Sequence record: OR621298
Strand: one strand, 5' to 3'
DNA: 64,000 nt
Origin: Escherichia phage vB_EcoD-Elw
The position numbers and the translations under genes were made by a program. The notes under the pieces were generated by a model. That model was given only the letters and a program-made list of their open reading frames with translations, did not search any database and was not told the DNA's origin. This document shows, piece by piece, positions 4,023-46,231 of the stretch. Position 1 is the first letter of the stretch. Each line of letters begins with the position of its first letter.

Positions 4023-4515
4023 TACTCCAATTATTTTTCTAGACATTGATGGGGTGCTCAATTCGAGCATCTCCCACCATCATGCACCTGATGATGAAAA
4101 GATTTTCTTTGGAAGTGACTGGGTTTTCAAACCACTTCTCAAGGCTTTTCAGGACTTTATTCGTCCTTCTCCGATAATGATTGTTGGAGTATCCTCATGG
4201 TTCTCTGTCAGGAATGAGATGGAGAACGTTCAGATTATGACCGGATTAGGTCTTATCGATCGTTTTCTTGGTACAACGGATTTTACCGGGGGTGGATTAT
4301 CTAGGGGTAATTCTGTTCTTCGCTTCGTTGAAAAGCATAAGCTCAAACATTGGTGTGTGCTGGATGATGCCGGTGCTATGATGTATCAGTATCCAACGGT
4401 TATAGTCAATGGTAGAACAGGAATAAATCTTCAGGATTTAAAAGCTGTTAGCTATATGCTAGAATTTAGCCCAGATCTTGAAATGTGTAAATCCTTACAA
4501 CAATTTAAGGTGTAA
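4009..4515 (+). CDS. HAD-like phosphatase (putative)
   Basis: N-terminal IIFLDIDGVLNS (HAD motif I) and a later LDDAG motif. Confidence 0.45.
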   Translation: MEISNTPIIFLDIDGVLNSSISHHHAPDDEKIFFGSDWVFKPLLKAFQDFIRPSPIMIVGVSSWFSVRNEMENVQIMTGLGLIDRFLGTTDFTGGGLSRGNSVLRFVEKHKLKHWCVLDDAGAMMYQYPTVIVNGRTGINLQDLKAVSYMLEFSPDLEMCKSLQQFKV

Positions 4516-4517
4516 AT

Positions 4518-4946
4518 ATGTTCAATAATGTATTCTCTAAAGAAGCTAACCCAATTTTGGTTAACTTTTGGCGTACTCTCCCGGCTAGCCTGTATAATGA
4601 GGCTATTAACTCCTTGAAAATATGGTGTGAGAATAACGAAATCTCCTTTGCTTTTAAAGATGATATTGATGAGGCCCCCTGTATTGGTCTAGTTGTGCAG
4701 GTAGAGGAGGGTCTTGAAGAGATTGTGGGCTGGAAAGAGTTAGACGAAATGGGCTTAGTTTTTGCGTTAAATTATAAGCTGTTTATGCCTGCTAAGCATC
4801 GCCTAGTTGTTAACTATAAAACTAGTGAATCTCCTGGTTTTCAGGTTAATGAACGTTATGGTTGGTCTTACTCACCGGAAGAAGTAAATGATGGTATCCA
4901 AAAACTTCGTCGTTTTGGTTATCAAATTCCGGGTTTAACCGCCTAA
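4518..4946 (+). CDS. hypothetical protein, tandem paralogue A
   Basis: 142 aa; shares DEAPCIGLVV, ELDEMGLVFALNY and YQIPGLT motifs with the next ORF. Confidence 0.5.
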   Translation: MFNNVFSKEANPILVNFWRTLPASLYNEAINSLKIWCENNEISFAFKDDIDEAPCIGLVVQVEEGLEEIVGWKELDEMGLVFALNYKLFMPAKHRLVVNYKTSESPGFQVNERYGWSYSPEEVNDGIQKLRRFGYQIPGLTA

Positions 4947-4955
4947 GGGGGCATA

Positions 4956-5348
4956 ATGGAACAAGTATATTGGCGTCAGATTGATCCTAGTTTGGTGAAG
5001 CGTGCGGAGAAGCTGCTACAACGTTGGTTGGTGGTAAGACAAGTCTCCTTCACTTTTCCGGAGCAGCAAACGGATGATCCATGCATTGGCGTTTTCCTGT
5101 CTGGATATGCCGGGGAATGGGAATTGGATTGGAATGAATTGTCTGCTATGGGCTTGATTGTTGCCCTAAACTTCTCTATATTCCATCCACGTGGTTTGGC
5201 CATATGTCGTGTGCCTGATGACGGTTGTTCGCCCCATCTTTTACAGGTGGAAGATGATATTTGGGAGTACACTCCAGATATTCTCGCAGAAGCTAAAGAA
5301 CAATTAAATCGTGTTGGGATTTATGTTCCGGGCTTAAATGATGGATGA
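4956..5348 (+). CDS. hypothetical protein, tandem paralogue B
   Basis: 130 aa; DDPCIGVF, ELSAMGLIVALNF and IYVPGLN motifs parallel the preceding ORF. Confidence 0.5.
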   Translation: MEQVYWRQIDPSLVKRAEKLLQRWLVVRQVSFTFPEQQTDDPCIGVFLSGYAGEWELDWNELSAMGLIVALNFSIFHPRGLAICRVPDDGCSPHLLQVEDDIWEYTPDILAEAKEQLNRVGIYVPGLNDG

Positions 5349-15731: not shown

Positions 15732-16618
15732 GTAGAATAACAGAACTACTTGATCTGAAAGGCATTGAATATAAAGACACAGGTGGGGACATCCTCATCT
15801 GTTGTCTCAATCCAGATCATGACGATAAACACCCAAGTTTGCGTATTGATCCTGAAACAGGTATTATGCACTGCTTGAGTTGTGGCTTCGGTAAAGGTAT
15901 ACCGAGCATTTACCATTATTTTAATGAGACTCAGTACCGACAGTCTCCAAGACTATCACAGGTACGTAAAAAGATTTCAGAGATTAGGAATGGATCAACG
16001 AATCTTGCAATTCCTGAATCTGCTTACCTTTTCGAAGGTGATTTCCGAGGTATAAGTTCTAAGACCTTGAAGAAATATTTTGCTTTCCAACACCAAGCAG
16101 ACTGGGAAGGCAGAATTGTATTCCCAATCACAGATGCTGTTGGACGCAATATCCTATTTTTGGGTCGTTCTATAAACAGTTCTGCCCCTCCTAAATACTT
16201 AGTAAAACCAAAACAAGTTTCACCGCCAATTTTTCCTGTACGATATAATACTCCAGTTCTTATTCTAGTTGAAGGCATCTTTGATATGCTGAACCTAGAG
16301 GATAATGGTATAGACTATGCTTCTTGCTGCTTTGGTACACATCAGTTTACTTCGGATAACATTGCAGATAAGTTCAGTCCTTATATTATTGCTGGGGTAA
16401 AAGTTGTTGTTATCTTACTAGATAATGATGCTTCTGGTAATAAAGCTGCACAAGCATTGGCTAAGCTAATTCGTACAAAAACGCGTTTAACACCTGTAGT
16501 TGCTAACTTCCTCCTGCCTGAAGGCAAAGATCCAGGTGATTTAAACAAAGATGAAATTGATATGTTAGCAAAACGTATTGAAATTTTAGTTGCTGAATCG
16601 CTTAAAGATTTGGTATAA
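15728..16618 (+). CDS. DNA primase (DnaG-like, Zn-finger plus TOPRIM)
   Basis: CHC2-type Zn finger CCLNPDHDDKHPS...HCLSCGFGKG; TOPRIM-like VEGIFDMLNLED and LLDNDASG. Confidence 0.7.
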   Translation: MSRITELLDLKGIEYKDTGGDILICCLNPDHDDKHPSLRIDPETGIMHCLSCGFGKGIPSIYHYFNETQYRQSPRLSQVRKKISEIRNGSTNLAIPESAYLFEGDFRGISSKTLKKYFAFQHQADWEGRIVFPITDAVGRNILFLGRSINSSAPPKYLVKPKQVSPPIFPVRYNTPVLILVEGIFDMLNLEDNGIDYASCCFGTHQFTSDNIADKFSPYIIAGVKVVVILLDNDASGNKAAQALAKLIRTKTRLTPVVANFLLPEGKDPGDLNKDEIDMLAKRIEILVAESLKDLV

Positions 16619-35986: not shown

Positions 35987-36065
35987 AGTTAATTTCTCCT
36001 CTTTAATAACAATATTATAATAGTATTAGAAAATTTTATCAAGAAATTTTTATTTTTCCATAAAG

Positions 36066-36092
36066 AAAAGGAGGACTCAAAGTCCTCCTCCA
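36066..36092 (-). terminator. rho-independent terminator downstream of the tape measure gene
   Basis: ggaggact/agtcctcc stem; on the minus strand it is followed by a U-tract. Confidence 0.6.
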
Positions 36093-36095
36093 GTT

Positions 36096-39000
36096 TTAAG
36101 AATTTCCTAATGTTTTCAGACTAGCACCGTTCTCATTCAGAGCTAATTCTACTGCGTCTCTTAGAGCACCACTATTACTAGAAGCAAACTCTCTAAAACT
36201 TGCAGCATCCATAGCACTAATATTCAAGATGATAGGTCTTCCTGAAGTTGAGTTAGATGAGGTTTTTAGCTCATCATTAGGCGTAGCTTTCATAGGAACC
36301 ATAGGGGTAACTACTTCTGTACCATGCTCACCCATTTGATAGCTAACCCCAGGGTACATATTACCACCCTCAGCACGAGGAACGAAAGAGTTAGCACCGC
36401 CTATGCCTTTATCACCACGGATATAAGATAATTCACCAGCATTAGCAGACATAGACACATCTATATTCTTCTGACGCTCTCCTAAGGTTAGGTAACTAGT
36501 TGTATCCGCTCCAGAATCAGCAATACTTGACATACCAGATGCAGAAGATGCTTGTGCTAATGCCAATGCACCCGCTAAACCTGCCGCAACCATTAGTGGA
36601 ATAGAGAACGGATATGGAACAGCGGTGGCTGCCTGCATTACAGCTACTGCAGTTTGGATGATAATCTGCTTCTTAGCTGCGTCTTGTTGAATCTTCAGCT
36701 TTTCAGCTTCCAACTTCTTCAACTTAGCTTTAGATGCTTCTGATTTACCATCACGTTTCTGCTCTGCTGCAATAGCCTGATCAATTGCACTAACCTGCTG
36801 GTTGGTACTATACTGTATCATAGAAGATACGGTTTGCATACCAGAAGCAATCAGGGAAGTAGTATCTAAAGACCCCTGGGAGAACTGGATCATGGCATTA
36901 GTTAGATTACCCATACTTTGAGCCACAGCGGTTGCTTCAGAGTTTAGCTCAGATAATTTAGAGATTGCCTGGTCATAAGAAGCCATTCTATTTTGCATAT
37001 CAGCAAAATCTTTATCTTCTCCAGATAGTCCAGTTGTAGGAGTATATACAGCACCTACAGAAGATCCAACAGAAGCTTGCATCTCCGCATTTCTCTGTGC
37101 CCTTAAACCTGCTAGTTGTGCCCTAGTTTCAGCTATCTTTTTATTATACTCCGCTTGTGCCGCAGCATTACCTAATGTTTTCTGCTTTAAGTCTTCATAT
37201 AATTTTAGCTGTTCCTGTAAGCGCTCCGCATTTCCCATTAATGGTTTAGTAGTAAATTGTCTTTGCTGTTCTTCCTCTCTACCAGCAGCCATTGAAGCAA
37301 TCTGATCTTGGCGGAATTTCCAGATTTCACGTTCAATTTGGGCTTGAGCACGTCTAGACTGTTCCGCCTCCTTCTGTTTATCAGCTTGTTTTGTATACCA
37401 TTCGTACTTCTCTTTTTCAATGGTCAATTCAAGATTTAACTGTGCTAGACGATACTGAGTATCTGTCATAGTACGGTTATTTAAGAGAGCTATCTCACGA
37501 TCTACACCCAGGATTTTATCTGTATAATCCTTAACCTTCTTCTGGGCCTCCATACCCTGATTGGTAAGTTTAAGTTTCTCCAGCTGAATTTTTTCAATTT
37601 CTTTCTCAACAGCTTTATTTCCCTGGTTTGTTTGAAGAACACGGCGTAAAGCAGCTTCTTGCTCTTCTAACTGTTGGAGTTCTAAACGCCTACCGGCTTC
37701 CTGTGCTTTTTCTTTATCCTTAGTTTGGTTATATACATCAGCTATCTTCTGTTGAACTGCTAACTGATTTTTAGTTTCATTACCAGTTAGTTTAACATAC
37801 TCAGATAGAGCCTGAGATGCAGTTTTCATTTCAGACAGGGTGTTATAACCCAGATTAAGGTTTTTAACATATTCATCAGCACTCTTACCAGTACCTAGAG
37901 ATAGAGATTCTATGTTTTTTATAGCATCTGCTAAAGTAGCACTAGTTTTAGCAGCAGTATCTGTATTCTGAGCAACGTTCTGTATGTCATTAGCTAAGTC
38001 ACTAGCCGTTTTCTTAGTCTGATTGTACGCTTTCTGCTGCTCAGTTAGTCCTTTTAATACAGTAGAGTTAAAATCGTATACAGCATCAGGATCAGTAGTA
38101 TCTCTCTGTAGATTAATTTGCTTCTGAAACTCTGGACTAGCCTTTGCAGCAGCGGCCCCAGCAGCTTGATACGCTGATTTCCAAGCATTGAGATTCTCTG
38201 TAGAATCCTCTACTTCCTTACCAAGTCTAGTTACTTGTAGACCCATAGCTGCAGTTTCTGCTACAAATTGCTTATTGGCCTCCGAAGCACCTGCTGCTGC
38301 AAGACCAACAGGAATACCTTCACCAACTTGACGTATAGCTAATTTTGTATAGAAATCTGCTTGTTCCATTCGTTTATCGAACTCAGATTTTAGCTTATTA
38401 CGCTTATCAAGAGATTCCTTATACATATCTAGAGCTTTATTATACCCTTCTTCAGAAGCGGCTAAACTTAAAGCAACAGCACCAACGTTGGTAGGATCTA
38501 TCTGTCTATTAGTTTTTTCTTGAGCTCTAGCTGCTTCAGCAGATACAGAAGCCTGAGAAGTATAAAATACTGTGTTGATAGCATCAATTACGGGCCCTAA
38601 GTATTTAGCAGCAGCCTGCTGAATCTTTCTCAGTGCGGCATCAGCATTAGCGGCAAATTGCTCCCACGGAGTAGCACGTAAAACTTCATCTAAGTAGCCA
38701 AAACGTTTAGTAGACTCTGCTATAACAGCATTAGCATACGCCTGCTGTTTCTGGAAAGTAGTAAGGCTGTTAATATTATATGTTATACCTGTGTTTGCAG
38801 CATTTAACTGCTTAACGTAATCAGCATAAGCATCATTAAGACGAATAGTAACACCAAGTTCATCCAGAAGTTCGATTTCTTGTTTAGATACACCCTTAAT
38901 TACACGGTTAAGTGCATCAGTCATATCAACGCCAAGAACAGCAGCAGCACGACGAGCTACTAAACCAAATTTATTAAGTTGTTCGGCGTCAAATCCATAA

Positions 39001-39776
39001 GCGGACGCTGAGGATGCTTGCCTCATAGCTTCTTCAAAAGAGATTGCATAGCCAGCTGCCTCTTGTAGTGATCTAGCAAGGGACTGAACAGGAGTACCTG
39101 TCTGAGTACCTACTATAACACCAAATTTTTCTAGACGATTTAGCTGATCACCTAGTTTAAGTTGTTCAAATGCTGATTGCAAAACGAAGATGTTGGAAGC
39201 AAGAGCTGCGTACATAATAGGTAGACTACCACCGATCTTAGCCATTGCCGCAAAATCACGAGTTGCACCACGTGCTGAACCAGAAGTATTACCAATAGCT
39301 CTAGAAGCTCTACCAGCGGCACCAGCAGTATCATTAAAACCCCTAGCTGTGCCACCTAATGCTCTATTAGTATCATATAATCTATCCTGGACTTTTTCTG
39401 TTGCAGCTGCAACATCATTACCCATTGTTTTAACAGATCTAGAAACTCCATCGAATCCAATTTCTAGTTTATCTGTTACTTCAATAAGCTGGATAGCCAG
39501 GTAGTCTAGCTTATCACCAATACCATCAATGGATTTAGTGATACCAGCCATACCCCTACTAGCTTGCATTTTAGTAAGACTTTTCGCTGCTCTATCTGCT
39601 GCCCTCTCAATGGAATAAAGAGTTCTGGGCATTTTACCTAACTGCTCATTTGTCAGTTCGGAAGCAGCAGCAGCATTTTCCAACGCATCAGATACGTTTT
39701 CAATAGACTTTGCAGTACGAGTTGCCCCCTTCTGTTTAACGTCTATTAGTAATTCTCGTATTAGCTTATCAGTCAT
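36096..39776 (-). CDS. tail tape measure protein (pb2-like)
   Basis: 1226 aa; long Ala/Gln-rich coiled-coil; largest ORF in the tail module. Confidence 0.8.
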   Translation of the reverse strand: MTDKLIRELLIDVKQKGATRTAKSIENVSDALENAAAASELTNEQLGKMPRTLYSIERAADRAAKSLTKMQASRGMAGITKSIDGIGDKLDYLAIQLIEVTDKLEIGFDGVSRSVKTMGNDVAAATEKVQDRLYDTNRALGGTARGFNDTAGAAGRASRAIGNTSGSARGATRDFAAMAKIGGSLPIMYAALASNIFVLQSAFEQLKLGDQLNRLEKFGVIVGTQTGTPVQSLARSLQEAAGYAISFEEAMRQASSASAYGFDAEQLNKFGLVARRAAAVLGVDMTDALNRVIKGVSKQEIELLDELGVTIRLNDAYADYVKQLNAANTGITYNINSLTTFQKQQAYANAVIAESTKRFGYLDEVLRATPWEQFAANADAALRKIQQAAAKYLGPVIDAINTVFYTSQASVSAEAARAQEKTNRQIDPTNVGAVALSLAASEEGYNKALDMYKESLDKRNKLKSEFDKRMEQADFYTKLAIRQVGEGIPVGLAAAGASEANKQFVAETAAMGLQVTRLGKEVEDSTENLNAWKSAYQAAGAAAAKASPEFQKQINLQRDTTDPDAVYDFNSTVLKGLTEQQKAYNQTKKTASDLANDIQNVAQNTDTAAKTSATLADAIKNIESLSLGTGKSADEYVKNLNLGYNTLSEMKTASQALSEYVKLTGNETKNQLAVQQKIADVYNQTKDKEKAQEAGRRLELQQLEEQEAALRRVLQTNQGNKAVEKEIEKIQLEKLKLTNQGMEAQKKVKDYTDKILGVDREIALLNNRTMTDTQYRLAQLNLELTIEKEKYEWYTKQADKQKEAEQSRRAQAQIEREIWKFRQDQIASMAAGREEEQQRQFTTKPLMGNAERLQEQLKLYEDLKQKTLGNAAAQAEYNKKIAETRAQLAGLRAQRNAEMQASVGSSVGAVYTPTTGLSGEDKDFADMQNRMASYDQAISKLSELNSEATAVAQSMGNLTNAMIQFSQGSLDTTSLIASGMQTVSSMIQYSTNQQVSAIDQAIAAEQKRDGKSEASKAKLKKLEAEKLKIQQDAAKKQIIIQTAVAVMQAATAVPYPFSIPLMVAAGLAGALALAQASSASGMSSIADSGADTTSYLTLGERQKNIDVSMSANAGELSYIRGDKGIGGANSFVPRAEGGNMYPGVSYQMGEHGTEVVTPMVPMKATPNDELKTSSNSTSGRPIILNISAMDAASFREFASSNSGALRDAVELALNENGASLKTLGNS

Positions 39777-39778
39777 GT

Positions 39779-39799
39779 TTTATTTTTCCCAATAAAAAA
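39779..39799 (-). promoter_or_regulatory. conserved 21-nt element (copy 1) just upstream of the tape measure start
   Basis: Minus-strand TTTTTTATTGGGAAAAATAAA, identical to the copy at 44795-44815, preceded by a GC hairpin. Confidence 0.5.
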
Positions 39800-39824
39800 G
39801 GCTCTGGGCAAATCACCCAGAGCC
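39787..39824 (-). terminator. terminator-like hairpin immediately upstream of the tape measure gene
   Basis: ggctctgg/ccagagcc stem followed (minus strand) by cttttttatt. Confidence 0.55.
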
Positions 39825-39859
39825 AAGCCTCATCGTGGAACGCCCATTGGAGGAAACTT

Positions 39860-40228
39860 TTACCGTGCACGAGATCTAGCATGTGGCTTAACGTTAGGAA
39901 TCCTTCCGTTTTGCGGTTTATGCTTCTCAGCACGTTTACGTGCAGCATCTACAGCTTTAGCATCAAATATATTGATAATGTGTAGAACAAATTCTTTCTC
40001 TATAGGATCAGTAATCCCATAAATATCAAATAAAACACCTAGAGCAGCCTTATCTTTACCTATAAAGATAGGAAAGTCACCTGGTATGAAGCAGTCAATT
40101 AGACTGTTATAAATATTCATACTAGTAGCTACAATAGGTGGAAAGTCTTCAAGTTCAACAGGCATGGCCTTAGGATCAGGCTCTATACCCATTGATTCAC
40201 AAAGTATTAAATATTGTTGTTTAGTCAT
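39860..40228 (-). CDS. putative tail assembly chaperone (downstream ORF of pair)
   Basis: 122 aa; directly upstream of the tape measure gene; no clear SD; its frame is open upstream into the preceding ORF. Confidence 0.45.
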   Translation of the reverse strand: MTKQQYLILCESMGIEPDPKAMPVELEDFPPIVATSMNIYNSLIDCFIPGDFPIFIGKDKAALGVLFDIYGITDPIEKEFVLHIINIFDAKAVDAARKRAEKHKPQNGRIPNVKPHARSRAR

Positions 40229-40289
40229 TTTAGATGCTGAGCTTTTAATACACTTATCTGCAAAATCAGCAATAGCATCTAGGAGTTCT

Positions 40290-40709
40290 TTACGCTTTTG
40301 GGCTACGAAAAGTGTCTAAGTGGAACACTGTCTGGTTGATCCAAGAATCAAACGCAGCAGAGTTCTGCATGAGCATTACAGCATTATCGCGGCTAAAAGG
40401 AACTTCAGTAGCAGGATCAGCATCTGTTTCAATCAGCATCAGTTTTTCAACGTCACCTACAGTCAAACCGGTCCAACCTTTAATAGCTGCGTCAACGAAG
40501 GCTTCAATGAACTTATCATCATCCTGTACCTGAATCAAAGTACCATTAACCCATTCATCGCGTTTAGCAGAAGAAATAACACGTTTAGAGGTAGCACGAG
40601 ACATATAGTTAAGTTCTAATTTAAAGTTCGGCATACCTGGGTAGGAAAGAGTAATAGTACGAGTATCAAGAGTAATATCTTTTAAATTAATCATTTTTAA
40701 TTTCTCCAA
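40290..40709 (-). CDS. putative tail assembly chaperone (upstream ORF of pair)
   Basis: 139 aa; position between tail tube module and tape measure. Confidence 0.45.
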   Translation of the reverse strand: MEKLKMINLKDITLDTRTITLSYPGMPNFKLELNYMSRATSKRVISSAKRDEWVNGTLIQVQDDDKFIEAFVDAAIKGWTGLTVGDVEKLMLIETDADPATEVPFSRDNAVMLMQNSAAFDSWINQTVFHLDTFRSPKA

Positions 40710-41589
40710 AGAAATCTATTCTCACTGGGTCTGAAGAAGCAGTAGGTATAATATCCCACTCAACTCTATACACATCTGAGAAATCTAGGCGTTTTGTAAT
40801 ACGTGCTGAAGGAAAATCTATAGAAATATTATTATTTCTTATATTTAAAGGTACATCTGTCTCCGGTTCGATATTGTAAACCATATCTCCTGCAAAACGT
40901 TTTAAGTAATATAGAGAAATGGTTGCCGAAGCATTCATTTCATTTACATAAGCTCTTTTATTATTATAAATTTTATTTATATCAAAAACACTCTTATCCT
41001 CTCTCCAGGAGCACTGCTGTTGGAAAGATAAAGAGGCAGAAATAAGACCGGGTAAGATGCTGCCATTAGTAGAAGCTATTACTGGGCTGTAAGACATTAC
41101 TTCACCCTGTATAATAGAAGCTGCTTCTCTATAGGTAGATACTTCTGAGAATTTCCCAGACTCAATACCAACATTAAGAATTGGTATGTTCTTATCTAAA
41201 GAAAAATCTACCGTAGATACATAACAGTTTTCAAAATATGCACAGTTATTATCTTTATTTACTATATAGATATTGAACATAATAGGTTCAATATTACTAC
41301 TATATAGTGGGAGTAAGAAAGTATTACCTTTTCTATCAAAACCTAACCATTCAAAGAAGTTAGCCTCTGTAAGAGTATTACTGAAATTTATTGCTAGAGA
41401 GATAGAAGAGGGGGTTTGAGCATTTATAATAGAGTCTGCATAGTTAGTTCTACGATGAACAGTCCTACGAAGAGTCTTGAATTCCTCGTATGAAGTCTGT
41501 ATATCATAGTTTGATAGGGCATCAAAATGAAATGCCCTACCATCATACTCAACTATAACTTTTGACTCTCGCATTAGAGAGTAGTACAT
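40687..41589 (-). CDS. baseplate tube protein (p140-like)
   Basis: 300 aa; synteny and size. Confidence 0.45.
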   Translation of the reverse strand: MYYSLMRESKVIVEYDGRAFHFDALSNYDIQTSYEEFKTLRRTVHRRTNYADSIINAQTPSSISLAINFSNTLTEANFFEWLGFDRKGNTFLLPLYSSNIEPIMFNIYIVNKDNNCAYFENCYVSTVDFSLDKNIPILNVGIESGKFSEVSTYREAASIIQGEVMSYSPVIASTNGSILPGLISASLSFQQQCSWREDKSVFDINKIYNNKRAYVNEMNASATISLYYLKRFAGDMVYNIEPETDVPLNIRNNNISIDFPSARITKRLDFSDVYRVEWDIIPTASSDPVRIDFFGEIKND

Positions 41590-41593
41590 TTAT

Positions 41594-43000
41594 TTAACCA
41601 CCAGCACTAACTGTGATAGTTTTAGTACCTTCTACACCAGAACCATCTTTAGCTACAGCCTTCACAGTAACTGCACCAGTTTTAGAGGCATCAGCTGTTA
41701 ATAACCCAGATTCTGCATCAATTGTAGCTGCGTTACCACTAGAAATAGACCAAGTTACAGCCTTATTAGTAGCTTCTGAAGGTGTTACCTCAACAGACAT
41801 CTGTAAAGTATTACTATTTGTTACAGAAACAGCCTCACCTGCCGACTTAACTGTAATGGATTTAACGGGAACTGGAGGAGTTTTAGCACCATCCCCCGTA
41901 GCAATCAGATTAGCCACAGTAGTTTTTGTATACTTGTTAGAAAATCCAAGATAACCTTCGTCACCAGTATCCAAATCAGTAGGAATAGCTTTAAACTCTA
42001 CTGAAGTACCAAGTACATCATCAGTCTCAATAGTAGGGATATTAACGTGCGCCTGTTTAGCAACTAACACAGCTGCCGGACGTTCCTCGTCATATTCTCC
42101 ACCCAAAATAAGTGCGATTTCAAAACGGTTAACTACCTTAAGGGTTTTAATCAGATCTTTGTACAGTTCCATAGAACCAAGAGACTTATCATTAAGGTAA
42201 GCTGTCAAAGAACCCGTTAACTCAAACGCACCCGTAAATGAGCCGATTGGAATATTTACACGTGACATAATATTCGGGGTTAGGTACGTGATGTTGTTAT
42301 TAATGGTAAAAGTACCACCAGTAATAGGAATATCATATGCCTTATCAGAATCCATATCCTTAATTTTTAGGATAGTTAACTTGTTCTTAATGTAAGAACT
42401 CTGAATAGTCATATAAGTTTCATCATCAATGCCTAATGCATCAGGGTCAAATGGTTGGCTATCTAACGGAATGAGCTGATTACCGTTACCAGACCAAGTT
42501 ACACGACCAATATCTTCAATATCAACGTTAACTTCTGCCTGGTTGATCTGGCAAGAGTCAATGTAACTCCACGCATTGTCAGTTAGAATGTAAATATGCA
42601 GCATAGCCAGTTCGTGATATGCGTTATCTTTGAAGTTAACCATGAAGTTAGTAGCATTATTATGTGCTCCAGTATCTCCATCAAGGTTAATAGCTTTACC
42701 ACTAGAAAGTGCATGCCATAACATATAGTCAGGAACAATTTGTTTGCTAGTAGTTTTATCCATGTATGGCAGGATATAGGTGGAGAAGCTCCACTCAGCT
42801 GCATTCAAGGAATCGTTAAAACGTTTAGAACCACGAGTAGGACGCGGACCAGCTTCGTTAACAGTAATATCTGTTGAGTTACTGTCCTGACCCCAAGAAA
42901 TATCATCCTGAACTAGAATCTCTTGCGTGTTGGTCTTATCGTGACCAGTCTTAACCGTAGACACGAAGATTCGAGTATTACGTAATAGTTGTAAAGACAT
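41594..43000 (-). CDS. tail tube protein with C-terminal Ig-like domain (pb6-like)
   Basis: 468 aa; C-terminal Ig-like stretch VKSITVKSAGEAVSV...KTITVSAGG. Confidence 0.7.
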   Translation of the reverse strand: MSLQLLRNTRIFVSTVKTGHDKTNTQEILVQDDISWGQDSNSTDITVNEAGPRPTRGSKRFNDSLNAAEWSFSTYILPYMDKTTSKQIVPDYMLWHALSSGKAINLDGDTGAHNNATNFMVNFKDNAYHELAMLHIYILTDNAWSYIDSCQINQAEVNVDIEDIGRVTWSGNGNQLIPLDSQPFDPDALGIDDETYMTIQSSYIKNKLTILKIKDMDSDKAYDIPITGGTFTINNNITYLTPNIMSRVNIPIGSFTGAFELTGSLTAYLNDKSLGSMELYKDLIKTLKVVNRFEIALILGGEYDEERPAAVLVAKQAHVNIPTIETDDVLGTSVEFKAIPTDLDTGDEGYLGFSNKYTKTTVANLIATGDGAKTPPVPVKSITVKSAGEAVSVTNSNTLQMSVEVTPSEATNKAVTWSISSGNAATIDAESGLLTADASKTGAVTVKAVAKDGSGVEGTKTITVSAGG

Positions 43001-43026
43001 TTAATTATTTTCTCCTAATCTGTAAC

Positions 43027-43512
43027 TTATCTGCGAAGTGACCTACGTGGAGGCTGATACCTCACTGTTACATTTATTTCTGCTAAACCATATGGGGCCA
43101 GTAGACCCTCATCTGTACTAACTGATGTAATGCTCATATCAGTCGCCTCACATGGGAAGGTCGATCCATTAGGTTTACTAACAGTATATTCTAAATTTCC
43201 ACCTGTGTCAATAACGGTTTTTATATCCGCTACGAGTTTTTCAAGTTGCTCTTGAATGTCTGTTTTCTCTTTATCATACACCAGGATAGGAAGTTCTAAA
43301 AACATCCACTGTTGACCTGAGGGAAGATACTGCCCAGTTTCAGTTCCGATATGAACTGCAACATAAGGAAACTCTCGTATCTCCTCAAACTTATAAGTTT
43401 GACGTGAGACGTTTCCATACAAGTTATTAAAATATTCATCTGGTTGAGAGCCATCCATTTGTTTGGCTATTCGATCAACCAGAGCTTGTGCTATACTTGT
43501 TCTGTGATCCAT
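43027..43512 (-). CDS. tail terminator protein (p142-like)
   Basis: 161 aa; synteny and size. Confidence 0.5.
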   Translation of the reverse strand: MDHRTSIAQALVDRIAKQMDGSQPDEYFNNLYGNVSRQTYKFEEIREFPYVAVHIGTETGQYLPSGQQWMFLELPILVYDKEKTDIQEQLEKLVADIKTVIDTGGNLEYTVSKPNGSTFPCEATDMSITSVSTDEGLLAPYGLAEINVTVRYQPPRRSLRR

Positions 43513-43515
43513 TTA

Positions 43516-44283
43516 TTAGGTTCCTTGATTAACCTTAATTTTGTATCTGGAGTGAATTAAGTCTCTTGCAGCTTTAGCTATCGCCTCTCCAATTAGTCTT
43601 TGAGGGTTTCTAGCACCTGGGTAGGGTCGTAGTGACAATCTTCGATATGTAGATACTGCAGGATTAAATACTGAATATGGACGTACCATATAATTATATG
43701 TAACGTTTAATTCCGGAGCACCTTTGCTAGTTCCAGCATCTCTAAGCATAACATCTTTAACTTTTAGAGAGTTTGCAAAACGACCTGTTCTAAATTTAAG
43801 TGGAGCTCCTGCTTTTTTCATATCCTTTATTAAGTATTCTTTAGCAACCAACTCCAGAATAACCTTCATATTACTATTTGATACAAAACGACCAGAAGCA
43901 CCTGTTACTGCACCAGAATATCCATCTTCTACGTCTCTAGGATCCCCAAAGTTTACTTGAACTCTACCAGTAGAACGTTTTTTACCTACAGCAGATTTTT
44001 TACCAGCGGTTGCTTGTATTAAATTCTCTAGAGCACCTAAATCTCCTGTTAGATCTAAGCTAGAAGAAACTGCTTTTAGAATAGAAGCGGTCCTAACATT
44101 AAGGAGATCTTGGGATACAGGTTTTGAGAATTTAAAAGATACCTGAGCAACAGTACCATCTCTAGTAGGATCTTTCAGTCCTGTTTCAACAGAATATACA
44201 ACAGTATTCTTATTGTTCTCGGAACGCCCAACATTATCTAGCTGCTCCTTAATAATTTGTGTAGCTAAATCAGAAAGAGACAT
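43516..44283 (-). CDS. tail completion protein (p143-like)
   Basis: 255 aa; synteny and size. Confidence 0.5.
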   Translation of the reverse strand: MSLSDLATQIIKEQLDNVGRSENNKNTVVYSVETGLKDPTRDGTVAQVSFKFSKPVSQDLLNVRTASILKAVSSSLDLTGDLGALENLIQATAGKKSAVGKKRSTGRVQVNFGDPRDVEDGYSGAVTGASGRFVSNSNMKVILELVAKEYLIKDMKKAGAPLKFRTGRFANSLKVKDVMLRDAGTSKGAPELNVTYNYMVRPYSVFNPAVSTYRRLSLRPYPGARNPQRLIGEAIAKAARDLIHSRYKIKVNQGT

Positions 44284-44795
44284 TATACTCTCCTGTAAAC
44301 TTCAATAATAGTACGAATATGCTCTGGAATACCAGACTTAGTATTATTAAAAGTAACTGTTTCTCCGCCAATTGTTTTAGCTTGACGGTAATCCTGTTTA
44401 TGCCAATGATCTACTAGCATACATGCTGCAAGTTTGAGATCCTCAGGTATTGGATTAAATCCACCTTGTGTGTATTCTACATCCATATAACCTTCTGGGG
44501 GATTAAATTTAAGAAGTATAACCCCATCAGAATACAACTTATATTGTTCTGGATCTATCTCCTTGTCGTTAATAGTCATTTTGGTTACTGAAGTAGCCGA
44601 GGGAGAACTTAAGAAGTATTTTTTACGAGTAGGTTTTGTATTGATTAACTGGTCTACCGCATCAGCATCATCCATACCTAAAAGGCTAGTAATCAGCGCA
44701 TTGGCAGCAGTAATCATCATCTCTACTCCAGATTCTAGTTCAGGTCGTTTTAACCCACCATATAATCTATAGTCTTCAGCTGTGATTATTTGCAT
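44283..44795 (-). CDS. head completion protein (p144-like)
   Basis: 170 aa; synteny and size. Confidence 0.5.
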   Translation of the reverse strand: MQIITAEDYRLYGGLKRPELESGVEMMITAANALITSLLGMDDADAVDQLINTKPTRKKYFLSSPSATSVTKMTINDKEIDPEQYKLYSDGVILLKFNPPEGYMDVEYTQGGFNPIPEDLKLAACMLVDHWHKQDYRQAKTIGGETVTFNNTKSGIPEHIRTIIEVYRRV

Positions 44796-44815
44796 TTATT
44801 TTTCCCAATAAAAAA
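44795..44815 (-). promoter_or_regulatory. conserved 21-nt element (copy 2) overlapping the p144-like start codon
   Basis: Minus-strand TTTTTTATTGGGAAAAATAAA, identical to the copy at 39779-39799. Confidence 0.5.
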
Positions 44816-44833
44816 GGAGAGCCGAAGCTCTCC
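44808..44833 (-). terminator. rho-independent terminator downstream of the major capsid gene
   Basis: ggagagc-cgaa-gctctcc hairpin followed (minus strand) by a U-tract. Confidence 0.7.
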
Positions 44834-44854
44834 TTATCGGCTGAAAAGCCTGTA

Positions 44855-46231
44855 TTAAGATGCAGCGTAAGCACCAGATACAACGCCATTTGCAAAGTAA
44901 CGTTGCAGGTTAACACGCTGAGTAACGTAGTATGCGTCACGCTGTTTACCAGCTTGGCGCTCACGTTCAACAGTAACAGCACGCTGGCGTGGCATTACGA
45001 AGTTATCTTTATAAACAATAACTGCGAACTCTGCGGAAGTAGCTTTAGCTGGGAAGTACTCAGAAACTACAACCGGCAGACCATAAATACGACCAACCTG
45101 ACCCTGCAGTTTAACAGCATCATTACCAACTTGGGCAACATCCTGCCATTCTTCATCTTCCAGCAGATCATAGTAAGCATCCATAGATACAATCAGTACC
45201 AGTTTGCTCAGTTTCAGACCATGACGGCCCAGTTTACGACGCAATTTAGAGATAGTTTTAGCAGTTACCAGTACGGAACCATCAGCTTTAGCTTCAGTAA
45301 TAACTTTAGCACTATCTTCACTAGCAAGAGTCAGCAGACCTTTCGGTTTACCGGAACCATCACCAGTCATGAAGGCTTCTTCAATAGAAACAGCGTGTGC
45401 TTCGATCAGACGCTTACGAAGCAGTGGCAGCAGGGAGAAGATTGCATCTTCTTCAGTTTCATCAGTAATGAAGGACTTAGCAGCCAGTTTGTAAGTACTG
45501 AAGTGGATTTCTTTAAGAGCACCTTTAACTTCATCACCAGTAGTTGCATCAGTACCATAAGTAGAAGCAGCAACCCAAGTAGCTTTACCAGCATCCGGTT
45601 CAACCAGCATAGTAAGAATCTTACTGGACATCGGCAGTTCTTCGAACAGTGCGCCAACTACAAGCTCTTTCTGCAGGTCACGGATAATACGCTGAGAGAA
45701 AATAGTTTCATAGCTTTCACTAGAAACTTCTACAGAAGAAGACTGATTCACTGCTTTCAGGTGTTTTTGACCGTGTTCGGTCTCGAATACGCCCTTTTCC
45801 ATTACATAAGATAACAGAACCAGTTTTTCAACTTCATCTTCAAAGTTTTCCTGAGTACCGTATAGTGCTTTAGCAACACTATCACCAACGAAGGAACGAC
45901 CTTCACGAGCTGTCAGCAGAGATTTAATTTCATCCTGAAGACCAACAATAGTTTCCTGTTGTTTTTCTACAGTTTGTGCAAACAGTTCTGCGCTCTTCTT
46001 AGATTTCTCATCCAGAGACTTAACCAGATCCAGAGCCTCTTCCAGACGCTTACGATCTTCGCCAACTGCTTTAGAAACCAGGTCATTCATACGAGCCAGT
46101 TCTTTTTCTTCCTGCTCTTTACGCATACGTTCAGCTTCCTGAGCTTTCTGAGCAGCGGTCAGACCTTCCAGAGATTTAGCCAGATCACCCAGACCAAGTT
46201 CTTCTTTCAGCTTATTAATATCAATAGTCAT
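44855..46231 (-). CDS. major capsid protein (pb8-like, HK97 fold)
   Basis: 458 aa; host-optimal codons; position after protease and decoration genes. Confidence 0.8.
   Translation of the reverse strand: MTIDINKLKEELGLGDLAKSLEGLTAAQKAQEAERMRKEQEEKELARMNDLVSKAVGEDRKRLEEALDLVKSLDEKSKKSAELFAQTVEKQQETIVGLQDEIKSLLTAREGRSFVGDSVAKALYGTQENFEDEVEKLVLLSYVMEKGVFETEHGQKHLKAVNQSSSVEVSSESYETIFSQRIIRDLQKELVVGALFEELPMSSKILTMLVEPDAGKATWVAASTYGTDATTGDEVKGALKEIHFSTYKLAAKSFITDETEEDAIFSLLPLLRKRLIEAHAVSIEEAFMTGDGSGKPKGLLTLASEDSAKVITEAKADGSVLVTAKTISKLRRKLGRHGLKLSKLVLIVSMDAYYDLLEDEEWQDVAQVGNDAVKLQGQVGRIYGLPVVVSEYFPAKATSAEFAVIVYKDNFVMPRQRAVTVERERQAGKQRDAYYVTQRVNLQRYFANGVVSGAYAAS

Follow-up and report, generated by a model that had tools for sequence, protein, structure and literature searches.

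Identical leaders at two probable terminator/ribosome binding site junctions among the late genes of a T5-like phage

The window analyzed here, the entire 64,000-nt stretch of Escherichia phage vB_EcoD-Elw DNA (sequence record OR621298), is that of a T5-like phage with 99% identity to phiLLS. On its minus strand, where all of the features described below are located, it contains two exact copies of the 21-mer TTTTTTATTGGGAAAAATAAA, at 44815-44795 and 39799-39779. No further matches with up to three mismatches were detected in the 64-kb window, and none of 100 dinucleotide-preserving shuffles gave a match, indicating that essentially none would be expected by chance. The stretch shared by both sites is in fact 23 nt long, consisting of CC followed by the 21-mer, which itself is composed of the U-tract TTTTTTATT, a weak Shine-Dalgarno (SD) sequence, GGGA, and an A-rich spacer that ends at or near an ATG. 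The copies mark two junctions, J1 between the major capsid gene and a head-completion/adaptor gene, and J2 between the T part of the tail assembly chaperone and the tape-measure gene.

At J1, the cassette is preceded by the stop codon of the gene for the 458-aa, pb8-like major capsid protein (44855-46231), a high-copy product that in both phiLLS and T5 is annotated as the precursor of the major head protein. A small upstream hairpin, GGCU-UUUC-AGCC (44839-44850) with GAUAA behind it, is present in the MFE structure; its GGC..GCCGA is kept in enterobacterial relatives, where GGC-loop-GCCGAYAA recurs. Downstream of it lies a putative intrinsic-terminator stem-loop, GGAGAGC-UUCG-GCUCUCC (44816-44833), with a 7-bp stem, extendable by two A-U pairs to 44835-44814, and a UUCG tetraloop, a folding energy of -12.0 kcal/mol, and a z-score of -3.9 relative to shuffled sequences. 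The 21-mer opens with the 9-nt U-tract TTTTTTATT (44807-44815), which begins immediately behind the stem and falls inside a terminator feature annotated in Klebsiella phage Spivey. The leader that follows (44796-44806) consists of GGGA (44806-44803) and the spacer AAAATAA (44802-44796). The final A of the 21-mer doubles as the first base of the ATG (44795) of a 170-aa, p144-like head-completion or head-tail adaptor gene (44283-44795; PHROG 442 head-tail adaptor, E = 4.7e-50).

At J2, the stop codon of the 122-aa chaperone T part (39860-40228; PHROG 3914, and positions 170-258 of the PHROG 313 profile) precedes the cassette. Two conserved non-coding boxes, A (TTTCCTCC, 39856-39849) and B (GGGCGTTCCACGA, 39845-39833), occupy 39833-39856, upstream of the terminator. 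CCTC in these boxes is invariant in a 15-sequence alignment, and in a separate comparison, it is replaced by TCTCC in two relatives that are among the most distant. A coding role for boxes A and B is excluded by indels of 1-2 nt, covariation analysis gave no support for structure in them, and a test for SD sequestration by them was negative. The putative intrinsic-terminator stem-loop, GGCUCUGGGU-GAUUU-GCCCAGAGCC (39800-39824), has a 10-bp stem, a folding energy of -19.1 kcal/mol, and a z-score of -4.6 relative to shuffles. RNAalifold recovered nine pairs of this stem, of which six show compensatory changes; 91.9% of cells were paired, compared to 30-57% in slid controls. Here too, the 9-nt U-tract TTTTTTATT (39791-39799) that opens the 21-mer adjoins the stem with no intervening base and leads into a leader (39777-39790) composed of GGGA (39790-39787) and the A-rich spacer AAAATAAAAC (39786-39777). 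Two nucleotides (AC) separate the end of the 21-mer from the ATG (39776) of the 1226-aa, pb2-like gene for the tape-measure/pore-forming tail tip protein (36096-39776). The Epseptimavirus J2 spacer lacks AAC and is thereby identical to that of J1 up to the ATG. A reading of this DNA from sequence only had described a duplicated 21-mer and hairpin directly before two late genes. Both exact minus-strand copies, and the GC-rich terminator-like hairpin ahead of each, were confirmed, and its statement that the copies abut start codons requires adjustment, as the J1 copy overlaps the ATG and the J2 copy stops 2 nt before it. The hairpins, on the other hand, are not duplicated, as those of J1 and J2 are unrelated in sequence.

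The two sites share the sequence hallmarks of an intrinsic terminator, with a GC-rich stem-loop, an adjoining U-tract, and compensatory stem changes, and those of an SD sequence that is purine-rich, complementary to 16S rRNA, and located 7 nt (J1) or 10 nt (J2) before the ATG, inside the usual range of 5-10 nt. A search of the Rfam 15 covariance models returned two chance-level matches only (E = 5.1 and 7.5), far below gathering scores. The anti-SD duplex energy is -4.2 kcal/mol for both leaders, among the weakest of 16 late leaders, with just 2 of the other 14 weaker still (portal, -4.1 kcal/mol; chaperone T, -0.1 kcal/mol). The sequence-only reading had held that other late genes use GGAG-type leaders; this is mostly right, 11 of 16 leaders having energies of -5.4 to -10.6 kcal/mol, but the portal and pb3 (-4.3 kcal/mol) leaders are similarly weak. 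Its suggestion of a terminator fused to a translation-initiation element is upheld, with the U-tract running straight into the weak SD of the next gene. We consider it probable that the 21-mers represent terminator/ribosome binding site (RBS) junctions and not an independent mobile or regulatory repeat.

The layout is not peculiar to the two copies in the window. Both junctions display the same order of hairpin, T-run, SD, and ATG across the Demerecviridae, including relatives whose capsid identity is as low as about 35-45%, and the distance from the start of the T-run to the ATG in relatives is mostly 16-24 nt, about 20. Phage records with the J1 cassette numbered 508 and those with the J2 cassette 425; the check proposed earlier, in which lack of conservation in relatives would have counted against the element, comes out in its favor. 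In distant relatives, the GGGA slot is occupied by GGAG, GAGG, GGAGG, AGGAG, or AAGGA, and at J1 also by AGAGG. There are 20 distinct complementary stems at the same position for J1 and 16 for J2, with up to six pair types per position, and every one of these stems is canonical at pairs 1-6, a regularity that is partly by construction since the hairpins in these tables were chosen by folding. The 40-nt J1 core is 82-100% identical to that of other genera, compared to 59-80% for the flanking coding DNA, and 90 nt at J2 are 71-83% identical, compared to 53-74% for the flanks. With a 6.5-kb megablast query, the sole match in Providencia phage PSTCR5 was the 49-nt J1 element, which is identical despite a capsid identity of 52%. 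The junctions also change independently, with J1 variants beside an unchanged J2, and vice versa, in the genomes of relatives. Generic RBS needs do not fully account for the 23/23 identity between J1 and J2, nor for leader conservation above that of neighboring coding DNA. The identity of the leaders most likely stems from a shared family design, T6-ATT-GGRG-A-rich-ATG, under strong purifying selection and not from recent copying. The identity itself is a minor curiosity, and the arrangement is ordinary and already known in kind.

Two strong promoters, each downstream of one of the cassettes, and a further terminator lie elsewhere in the late region. A sigma-70 promoter, TTGACA-17-TATACT (43183-43211), the equivalent of T5 P-J5, matches 11 of 12 consensus positions and is located inside the tail-terminator gene, ahead of the tail-tube gene. 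A second promoter, TTGATA-17-TATAAT (36014-36042), the equivalent of T5 P-G25, follows a third late terminator (36091-36067); terminator, flank TTTTCTTTATGGAAAAATAAAAA, and promoter together occupy 36014-36091. The third terminator is predicted to end the pb2 transcription unit and the P-G25 equivalent to restart transcription of the tail-tip genes. A related, gapped form of the motif, ATGGAAAAATAAAAA, is present after the third terminator, just upstream of the promoter -35 box and with no start codon nearby. Because it recurs in this setting, the A-rich block may have a role other than translation.

We favor, with reasonable confidence, the explanation that the cassette is an internal attenuator combined with a weak RBS ahead of genes for low-copy proteins. 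The hairpin, U-tract, and weak RBS would together step expression down within the late operons through partial termination. J1 would lower expression of the head completion, tail completion, and tail terminator genes after the major capsid gene, the P-J5 equivalent would bring transcription back up before the tail-tube gene, J2 would step down the tape measure after the tail-tube, minor-tail, and chaperone block, and the P-G25 equivalent would step expression up again ahead of the tail-tip genes. The A-rich spacer, AAAATAA(AAC), would provide an unstructured run up to the ATG. The hairpin-to-ATG gap is 20 nt or 23 nt from the start of the T-run, and since no promoter fits in it, the downstream genes would be expressed only by read-through. 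A point against this explanation is that each terminator has the look of a strong one, with a perfect stem and 8 of 9 U in the tract, yet essential promoterless genes lie behind them, which would require substantial read-through or phage-induced antitermination. The downstream products are low-copy, with TrP a hexamer, TCP present in about one copy, and TMP a trimer (PMC11784142). This much agrees with the earlier proposal that the cassette sets the low stoichiometry of these proteins, and the role itself is plausible. The searchable literature yielded neither mapped transcript 3' ends nor termination efficiencies for J1 or J2, and partial termination in vivo and a stoichiometric role are thus likely but inferred.

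Other functions for the hairpins or the 21-mer were also considered. It is conceivable, but unlikely, that the hairpins serve mainly as RNA stability or processing elements, offering 3' protection to the abundant capsid and tube mRNAs or a 5' barrier for the downstream mRNA, with differential decay setting stoichiometry. The great stability of the hairpins, including the C(UUCG)G tetraloop, their conservation along with small upstream hairpins or boxes, and the abundant read-through needed by essential downstream genes would all be consistent with such a role. However, an uninterrupted U-tract after the stem, superfluous for a pure stability hairpin, is kept family-wide at both sites, and stability is compatible with termination, the two not being mutually exclusive. 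The 21-mer could also form an A-U hairpin of its own, UUUAUU-GGGAAA-AAUAAA, with the SD in the loop tuning initiation. This perfect 6-bp inverted repeat is part of the MFE structure at each site, but it contributes only -0.9 kcal/mol, 21 of 200 shuffles fold as well, and it is not kept in relatives with different leaders, making this function highly improbable. The possibility raised from sequence only of a promoter element, considered here with GGGAAAAATAAA as a promoter UP-element or -35 region and the cassette as a terminator followed by a promoter, did not survive. TTGGGA does resemble a -35 hexamer, and a similar block after the pb2 terminator sits just upstream of the P-G25 -35, but with the ATG within 0-2 nt, any transcription start would fall inside the gene. 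The 20-23 nt gap contains no -35/-10 pair, a -10 hexamer is absent at the correct spacing of 16-18 nt, a consensus scan was empty at both sites, the best candidates found by hand match only 7 of 12 consensus positions, and distant relatives have SD sequences at the same position; a promoter here is thus extremely improbable.

The exact identity of the two sites, conservation above that of flanking coding DNA, the PSTCR5 J1 element, and the related GGAAAAATAAA block behind the third late terminator could instead point to an operator that both sites share and through which a phage factor acting in trans (a translational repressor resembling T4 RegA, an antiterminator, or a small RNA) would co-regulate head-completion and tape-measure expression. 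We regard this as very unlikely, given that the 21-mer is present in two copies per genome in ~30 genomes, with no more near-copies in the window, that distant relatives swap the leader for ordinary strong SDs while keeping the terminator, that T5 proper has a split J2 element yet is a fully viable model phage, and that there is no known candidate factor and no complementary sequence elsewhere in the window. The split in T5 proper is due to a 250-aa nuclease gene, T5.141, inserted at J2 between TTTTTTATT and GGAAAA (between ATT and GG), with loss of the contiguous second copy found in the window; because this gene separates them, the terminator half and the RBS half are independent modules. 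Paralogous nuclease genes (PHROG 681, 37% mutual identity) occupy J1 in several relatives and, in T5, interrupt the J2 21-mer, and all seven nuclease-carrying genomes examined have variant J1 21-mers, reflecting only two to three independent events. These genes would be in line with a historical origin of the leader identity, through duplication, gene conversion between J1 and J2, or spread by homing-nuclease genes. Against this, the unrelated sequences of the adjoining hairpins imply that there is no larger duplicated block, J1 and J2 vary independently among genomes, both sites hold to the same consensus in Vibrio phages and in genomes from several genera that lack the nuclease, and 23 nt is very short for recombination, leaving such an origin distinctly unlikely. 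We likewise give little credence to the combined possibility that the shared 23 nt is a recognition element jointly gating the head-completion and tape-measure genes at the level of read-through or translation and also a homing target of the paralogous nucleases; if true, gating would be exerted by a phage-encoded factor or by an RNA released from the conserved J2 3'-UTR with the CCUCC box.

Several components of the attenuator and weak RBS arrangement favored here are already annotated in relatives. In T5 (AY543070), putative rho-independent terminators are annotated after the major head gene (101563-101586), where the hairpin is identical to that at J1 in the window, and before pb2 (96553-96587), where the hairpin differs from that at J2 by one loop base; the U-tract is the same. 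In Spivey (MK630230), which has a near-identical J1 string, the annotation labels GGAGAGCTTCGGCTCTCCTTTTTTATT as a terminator and the GGGT immediately behind it as an RBS, the same split as described here: TTTTTTATT closes the terminator and GGG opens the RBS. The terminators and the terminator/RBS split are therefore not new. Neither the leader identity nor the spacing rule that holds across the family is marked by a feature in the 12 annotation tables covered here.

The cassettes can be compared with several known systems. T-even phages carry free-standing GIY-YIG homing endonuclease genes, encoding the Seg and Mob proteins. The nuclease genes of relatives are similarly inserted in these intergenic cassettes, with the flanking sequence altered in those alleles, whereas the window has no nuclease gene at J1 or J2. 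The T4 RegA operators are short A/U-rich sequences over the initiation regions of many mRNAs and have a known repressor; the overlap with initiation regions is similar here, but there are only two copies, and plain SDs replace the sequence in relatives. In T7, the terminator T-phi is reportedly located downstream of the major capsid gene 10 and is an incomplete terminator right behind the most abundant structural gene, with tail genes expressed by read-through, as proposed here for J1. T-phi acts on T7 RNA polymerase. By contrast, the polymerase here is the host sigma-70 RNAP (PMC7472727), and the RBS of the next gene begins 3 nt after the U-tract. The E. coli rplL-rpoB attenuator is a partial intrinsic terminator within an operon that separates high-copy proximal from low-copy distal mRNA levels. 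For E. coli attenuators, termination efficiency has been measured, whereas here it is inferred, and the cassettes described here differ in belonging to phage late operons and in having the RBS fused directly to the terminator.

The 21-mer TTTTTTATTGGGAAAAATAAA is present in two exact copies on the minus strand of the window, at 39799-39779 and 44815-44795. No further copy with three or fewer mismatches was found elsewhere in the 64-kb window, and 0 of 100 dinucleotide-preserving shuffles contained a match, in agreement with the sequence-only reading, which had reported two identical 21-nt elements. CC precedes both copies, extending the shared stretch to 23 nt. The window derives from a T5-like phage (Tequintavirus; 99.2% identity to phiLLS over the region), and both copies, as well as all neighboring genes treated here, lie on the minus strand. 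One copy is located at junction J1, where the major capsid gene (44855-46231) is followed by a gene for a 170-aa head-completion or head-tail adaptor protein (PHROG 442). The other is at junction J2, where the T part of the tail assembly chaperone (39860-40228; PHROG 3914/313) precedes the gene for the 1226-aa tape-measure protein pb2. At J1, the final A of the 21-mer, at 44795, is also the A of the ATG, whereas at J2, AC separates the 21-mer from the ATG at 39776. In the phiLLS annotation (L001), a distal-tail-protein homologue (4373-4987) is named 'DNA polymerase I' and a small gene beside the portal gene (15886-16380) 'tail fibers protein'; both are likely annotation errors, and close relatives carry them as well.

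A GC-rich hairpin precedes each copy, as had been proposed, with the structure GGAGAGC-UUCG-GCUCUCC at J1 (44833-44816, -12.0 kcal/mol) and GGCUCUGGGU-GAUUU-GCCCAGAGCC at J2 (39824-39800, -19.1 kcal/mol). The hairpin itself, however, is not duplicated as the sequence-only reading had it: the two stems are unrelated in sequence, and the duplicated part is their 3' flank, the first part of which, TTTTTTATT, is the terminator U-tract. Relatives showed 20 different stem sequences at J1 and 16 at J2, with pairs 1-6 canonical in every one, a result that is partly by construction given that the hairpins were chosen by folding. In an alignment-based test of J2, 6 of 9 consensus pairs displayed compensatory changes, and 91.9% of alignment cells were paired, versus 30-57% with slid partners. 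RNAalifold returned no consensus from a MAFFT alignment of the very divergent J1 cassettes because stem lengths differ, and J1 stems were instead assessed by base-anchored pair counts. An Rfam search of 39600-45000 gave chance-level matches only, and a literature search for mapped T5 late terminators, transcript ends, and termination efficiencies gave predictions only. Both terminators are strong-looking, yet the essential genes behind them depend on read-through. An intrinsic A-U hairpin inside the 21-mer (-0.9 kcal/mol, with shuffles as good) was rejected as a driver, being energetically negligible. Downstream of the capsid stop codon and ahead of the J1 terminator, a separate small hairpin (44839-44850, minus strand) has the sequence GGCU-UUUC-AGCC, with GAUAA after it, and GGC-loop-GCCGAYAA is recurrent in enterobacterial relatives.

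In the second half of the 21-mer, GGGA precedes the ATG by 7 nt at J1 and by 10 nt at J2, with AAAATAA(AAC) as the spacer. It was identified as the Shine-Dalgarno (SD) sequence because distant relatives carry ordinary SDs there (GGAG, GAGG, GGAGG, AGGAG, or AAGGA). The duplex with the anti-SD amounts to -4.2 kcal/mol at both junctions, and only 2 of 14 other late leaders, those of the portal (-4.1) and chaperone T (-0.1) genes, are weaker. Most late leaders are of the GGAG or GAGG type (-5.4 to -10.6 kcal/mol), so that the earlier contrast with ordinary GGAG-type leaders holds for most late genes. The combination of a U-tract and an SD supports the proposed fusion of a terminator to a translation-initiation element.

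Conservation of the 21-mer in related genomes had been suggested as a check, and it was found to extend well beyond the closest relatives. Both cassettes, each comprising hairpin, T-run, and leader, are nearly invariant in approximately 30 genomes of Tequintavirus and Epseptimavirus; AAC is missing from the J2 spacer of Epseptimavirus, making J1 and J2 the same up to the ATG. The 53-nt J1 cassette was detected in 508 GenBank phage records (336 at no less than 99% identity) and the 59-nt J2 cassette in 425, all at 90% identity or above, while 47 stretches of IMG/VR contigs carry the 21-mer without mismatch, with at most two copies per genome. A wider set comprised Klebsiella, Enterobacter, Pectobacterium, Providencia, and Vibrio phages together with 79 IMG/VR loci with capsid proteins of 34-100% identity; the related loci were gathered with the capsid alignment, since the adaptor-protein alignment lacked a conserved stretch. 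Gene order is kept across this set, and in nearly every genome, both junctions have the same layout, consisting of a GC-rich hairpin, 5-7 T (very often TTTTTTATT), a purine block, and an ATG mostly 16-24 nt from the start of the T-run. Both cassettes are conserved beyond the surrounding coding DNA, with 82-100% identity in the J1 core versus 59-80% in its flanks, and 71-83% in the J2 cassette versus 53-74%. In Providencia phage PSTCR5, the J1 element is the sole megablast match within 6.5 kb. Some genomes carry a variant at one junction with the other unchanged, so the two junctions do not evolve in concert. In one locus of a chee24-like phage (L086, IMG/VR 2974619798), the J1 U-tract has 13 T's rather than 6 in an otherwise identical genome, representing either a natural variant that should alter termination efficiency or a homopolymer sequencing error. 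Four Corynebacterium- or Listeria-named records (H23, H24, H146, and H191) are 83-98% identical to the T5-like late region, and Campylobacter-named records appeared only in organism-name tallies; the records under all three names are probably mislabelled or contaminant.

Genes inserted at the junctions bear on how the 21-mer is built. In T5 proper, T5.141, a 250-aa nuclease gene (L078, 7778-8530), is inserted at J2 between TTTTTTATT and GGAAAA (ATT|GG), leaving the terminator half with the hairpin and the purine/A-rich half with the pb2 start; T5 has only one intact 21-mer because the J2 copy is split. The two halves are thus modules that can be separated, which is what a terminator joined to a ribosome-binding site (RBS) would predict. 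Genes of 189-190 aa are inserted at J1 in other genomes (L091, 7965-8534; L106, 7967-8539; L137; L165, 420-989; L171, 603-1172; L172, 498-1067; and L173, 477-1046), annotated in JLBYU43 as GIY-YIG nuclease. They form one family with T5.141 (37% identical), sharing PHROG 681, Pfam CapR, and a treble-clef zinc finger. All seven genomes with a J1 nuclease, from two genera, carry variant J1 alleles, ATT-ATTA-GGAAAAATAA or ATT-GGAAAAATAA, and keep the canonical J2. Both variants, like the T5.141 insertion, change the ATT/GGG step. This pairing, which represents only two to three independent events, suggests a homing-site relationship or co-conversion.

Strongly conserved sequence was also observed upstream of the J2 terminator, where two boxes, TTTCCTCC and GGGCGTTCCACGA, lie directly 3' of the chaperone-T stop codon (39833-39856, minus strand). 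The first, (T)TTCCTCC(A), contains an anti-SD-like CCUCC, with CCTC invariant in a 15-sequence alignment; TCTCC is found instead in two relatives that are among the most distant. The second, GGGCGTTCCACGA, follows the CCTCC box in many relatives. A 59-aa ORF running through the J2 hairpin (39769-39948) was rejected as the cause of this conservation, as relatives have indels of 1-2 nt with the frame unrestored; because these are not multiples of three, the boxes are non-coding. An upstream hairpin pairing the first box with GAGGCUU had 70-80% of cells paired, with almost no covariation. We also considered whether the boxes sequester the pb2 SD until opened by ribosomes finishing the chaperone gene, setting the SD pairing probability in each of 17 homologues against 100 shuffled versions of the upstream segment, and found no support for this idea (mean z 0.26). 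One possibility is that the boxes seed an RNA derived from the 3' UTR, with its end at the J2 terminator. As for the chaperone genes themselves (stretch 40199-40348, minus strand), the two ORFs, of 139 aa and 122 aa, each correspond to one half of a single PHROG 313 profile. The T ORF essentially lacks an SD (-0.1 kcal/mol), and its frame is open for approximately 90 nt upstream, where it overlaps the last part of G in the +1 frame. A -1 shift at a CCCAAAA run in G would yield only a short product, and a GT fusion, if made, would require a +1 or -2 shift.

The late region contains two more terminator-like hairpins, one behind the large terminase gene and one behind pb2; in both cases a good sigma-70 promoter comes next, and then a strong GAGGAG leader. 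J1 and J2 are unlike these: their ATGs lie 20 or 23 nt downstream of where the T-run begins, too close for a promoter to fit. Scanning for the sigma-70 consensus gave no site in the hairpin-to-ATG interval of either junction, and candidates picked by eye matched 7 of 12 consensus positions at most. The suggestion that the cassette includes a promoter element, which also fails on spacing, was consequently dropped. Strong promoters on the minus strand do lie ahead of the tube gene (43211-43183, equivalent to T5 P-J5) and after the pb2 terminator (36042-36014, equivalent to T5 P-G25). A gapped relative of the 21-mer, ATGGAAAAATAAAAA (also given as TTTTCTTTATGGAAAAATAAAAA), follows the pb2 terminator (36014-36091, minus strand), directly upstream of the -35 element TTGATA of P-G25, in the position of an UP element and with no start codon nearby. 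This resemblance is confined to close relatives, being absent from the phages of Klebsiella, Pectobacterium, Providencia, and Vibrio.

For transcription of its late genes, T5 uses host sigma-70 RNAP (PMC7472727), and the genes after J1 encode low-copy proteins, namely a tail terminator hexamer and about one tail-completion protein, while pb2 is a trimer (PMC11784142). J1 and J2 would be partial terminators, with the read-through transcripts relying on a weak RBS for translation; jointly, the two effects would step down expression after the capsid gene and after the tube/chaperone block, and internal promoters would step it up again. The result is a coherent map of how T5-like phages control their late operons, leading from the capsid gene through a terminator and weak RBS to low-copy head/neck genes, then from a promoter to the tube gene and chaperones, through a second terminator and weak RBS to the tape measure, and finally through a terminator and promoter to the tail tip. 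This map is of use for annotation and engineering of T5-like phages, in which inserts should be placed so as to spare the cassettes; these could also be reusable as compact "step-down" parts.

The 23/23 identity of the two leaders is beyond what RBS requirements alone explain, and the leader is held tighter than an ordinary RBS. This identity is best explained by both sites retaining a family-wide design, approximately T6-ATT-GGRG-A-rich-ATG, under strong selection. A shared operator, with a trans-acting factor bound at both 21-mers, is disfavored by the presence of only two copies, by the exchange of the leader for ordinary SDs in relatives, and by the split site in T5. A historical origin of the identity through duplication or gene conversion is likewise disfavored, given that the J1 and J2 hairpins are unrelated and that changes at the two junctions are independent. 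It is also conceivable that the hairpins act purely as RNA-stability elements; this would leave the conserved U-tract unexplained, although such a role may coexist with termination.

The repeat at J1 and J2 is real and conserved, but it belongs to two ordinary intrinsic terminators, each fused to a weak RBS, and reveals no new mechanism. Its nature is already known from reference genomes of the same phage group. In T5 (AY543070), GGAGAGCTTCGGCTCTCCTTTTTT and GGCTCTGGGTGATATGCCCAGAGCCTTTTTTATTT are annotated as putative rho-independent terminators, and in Klebsiella phage Spivey, GGAGAGCTTCGGCTCTCCTTTTTTATT is annotated as a terminator, with the GGGT that comes directly after it labelled as an RBS, so that two independent sources divide the 21-mer as we do here.
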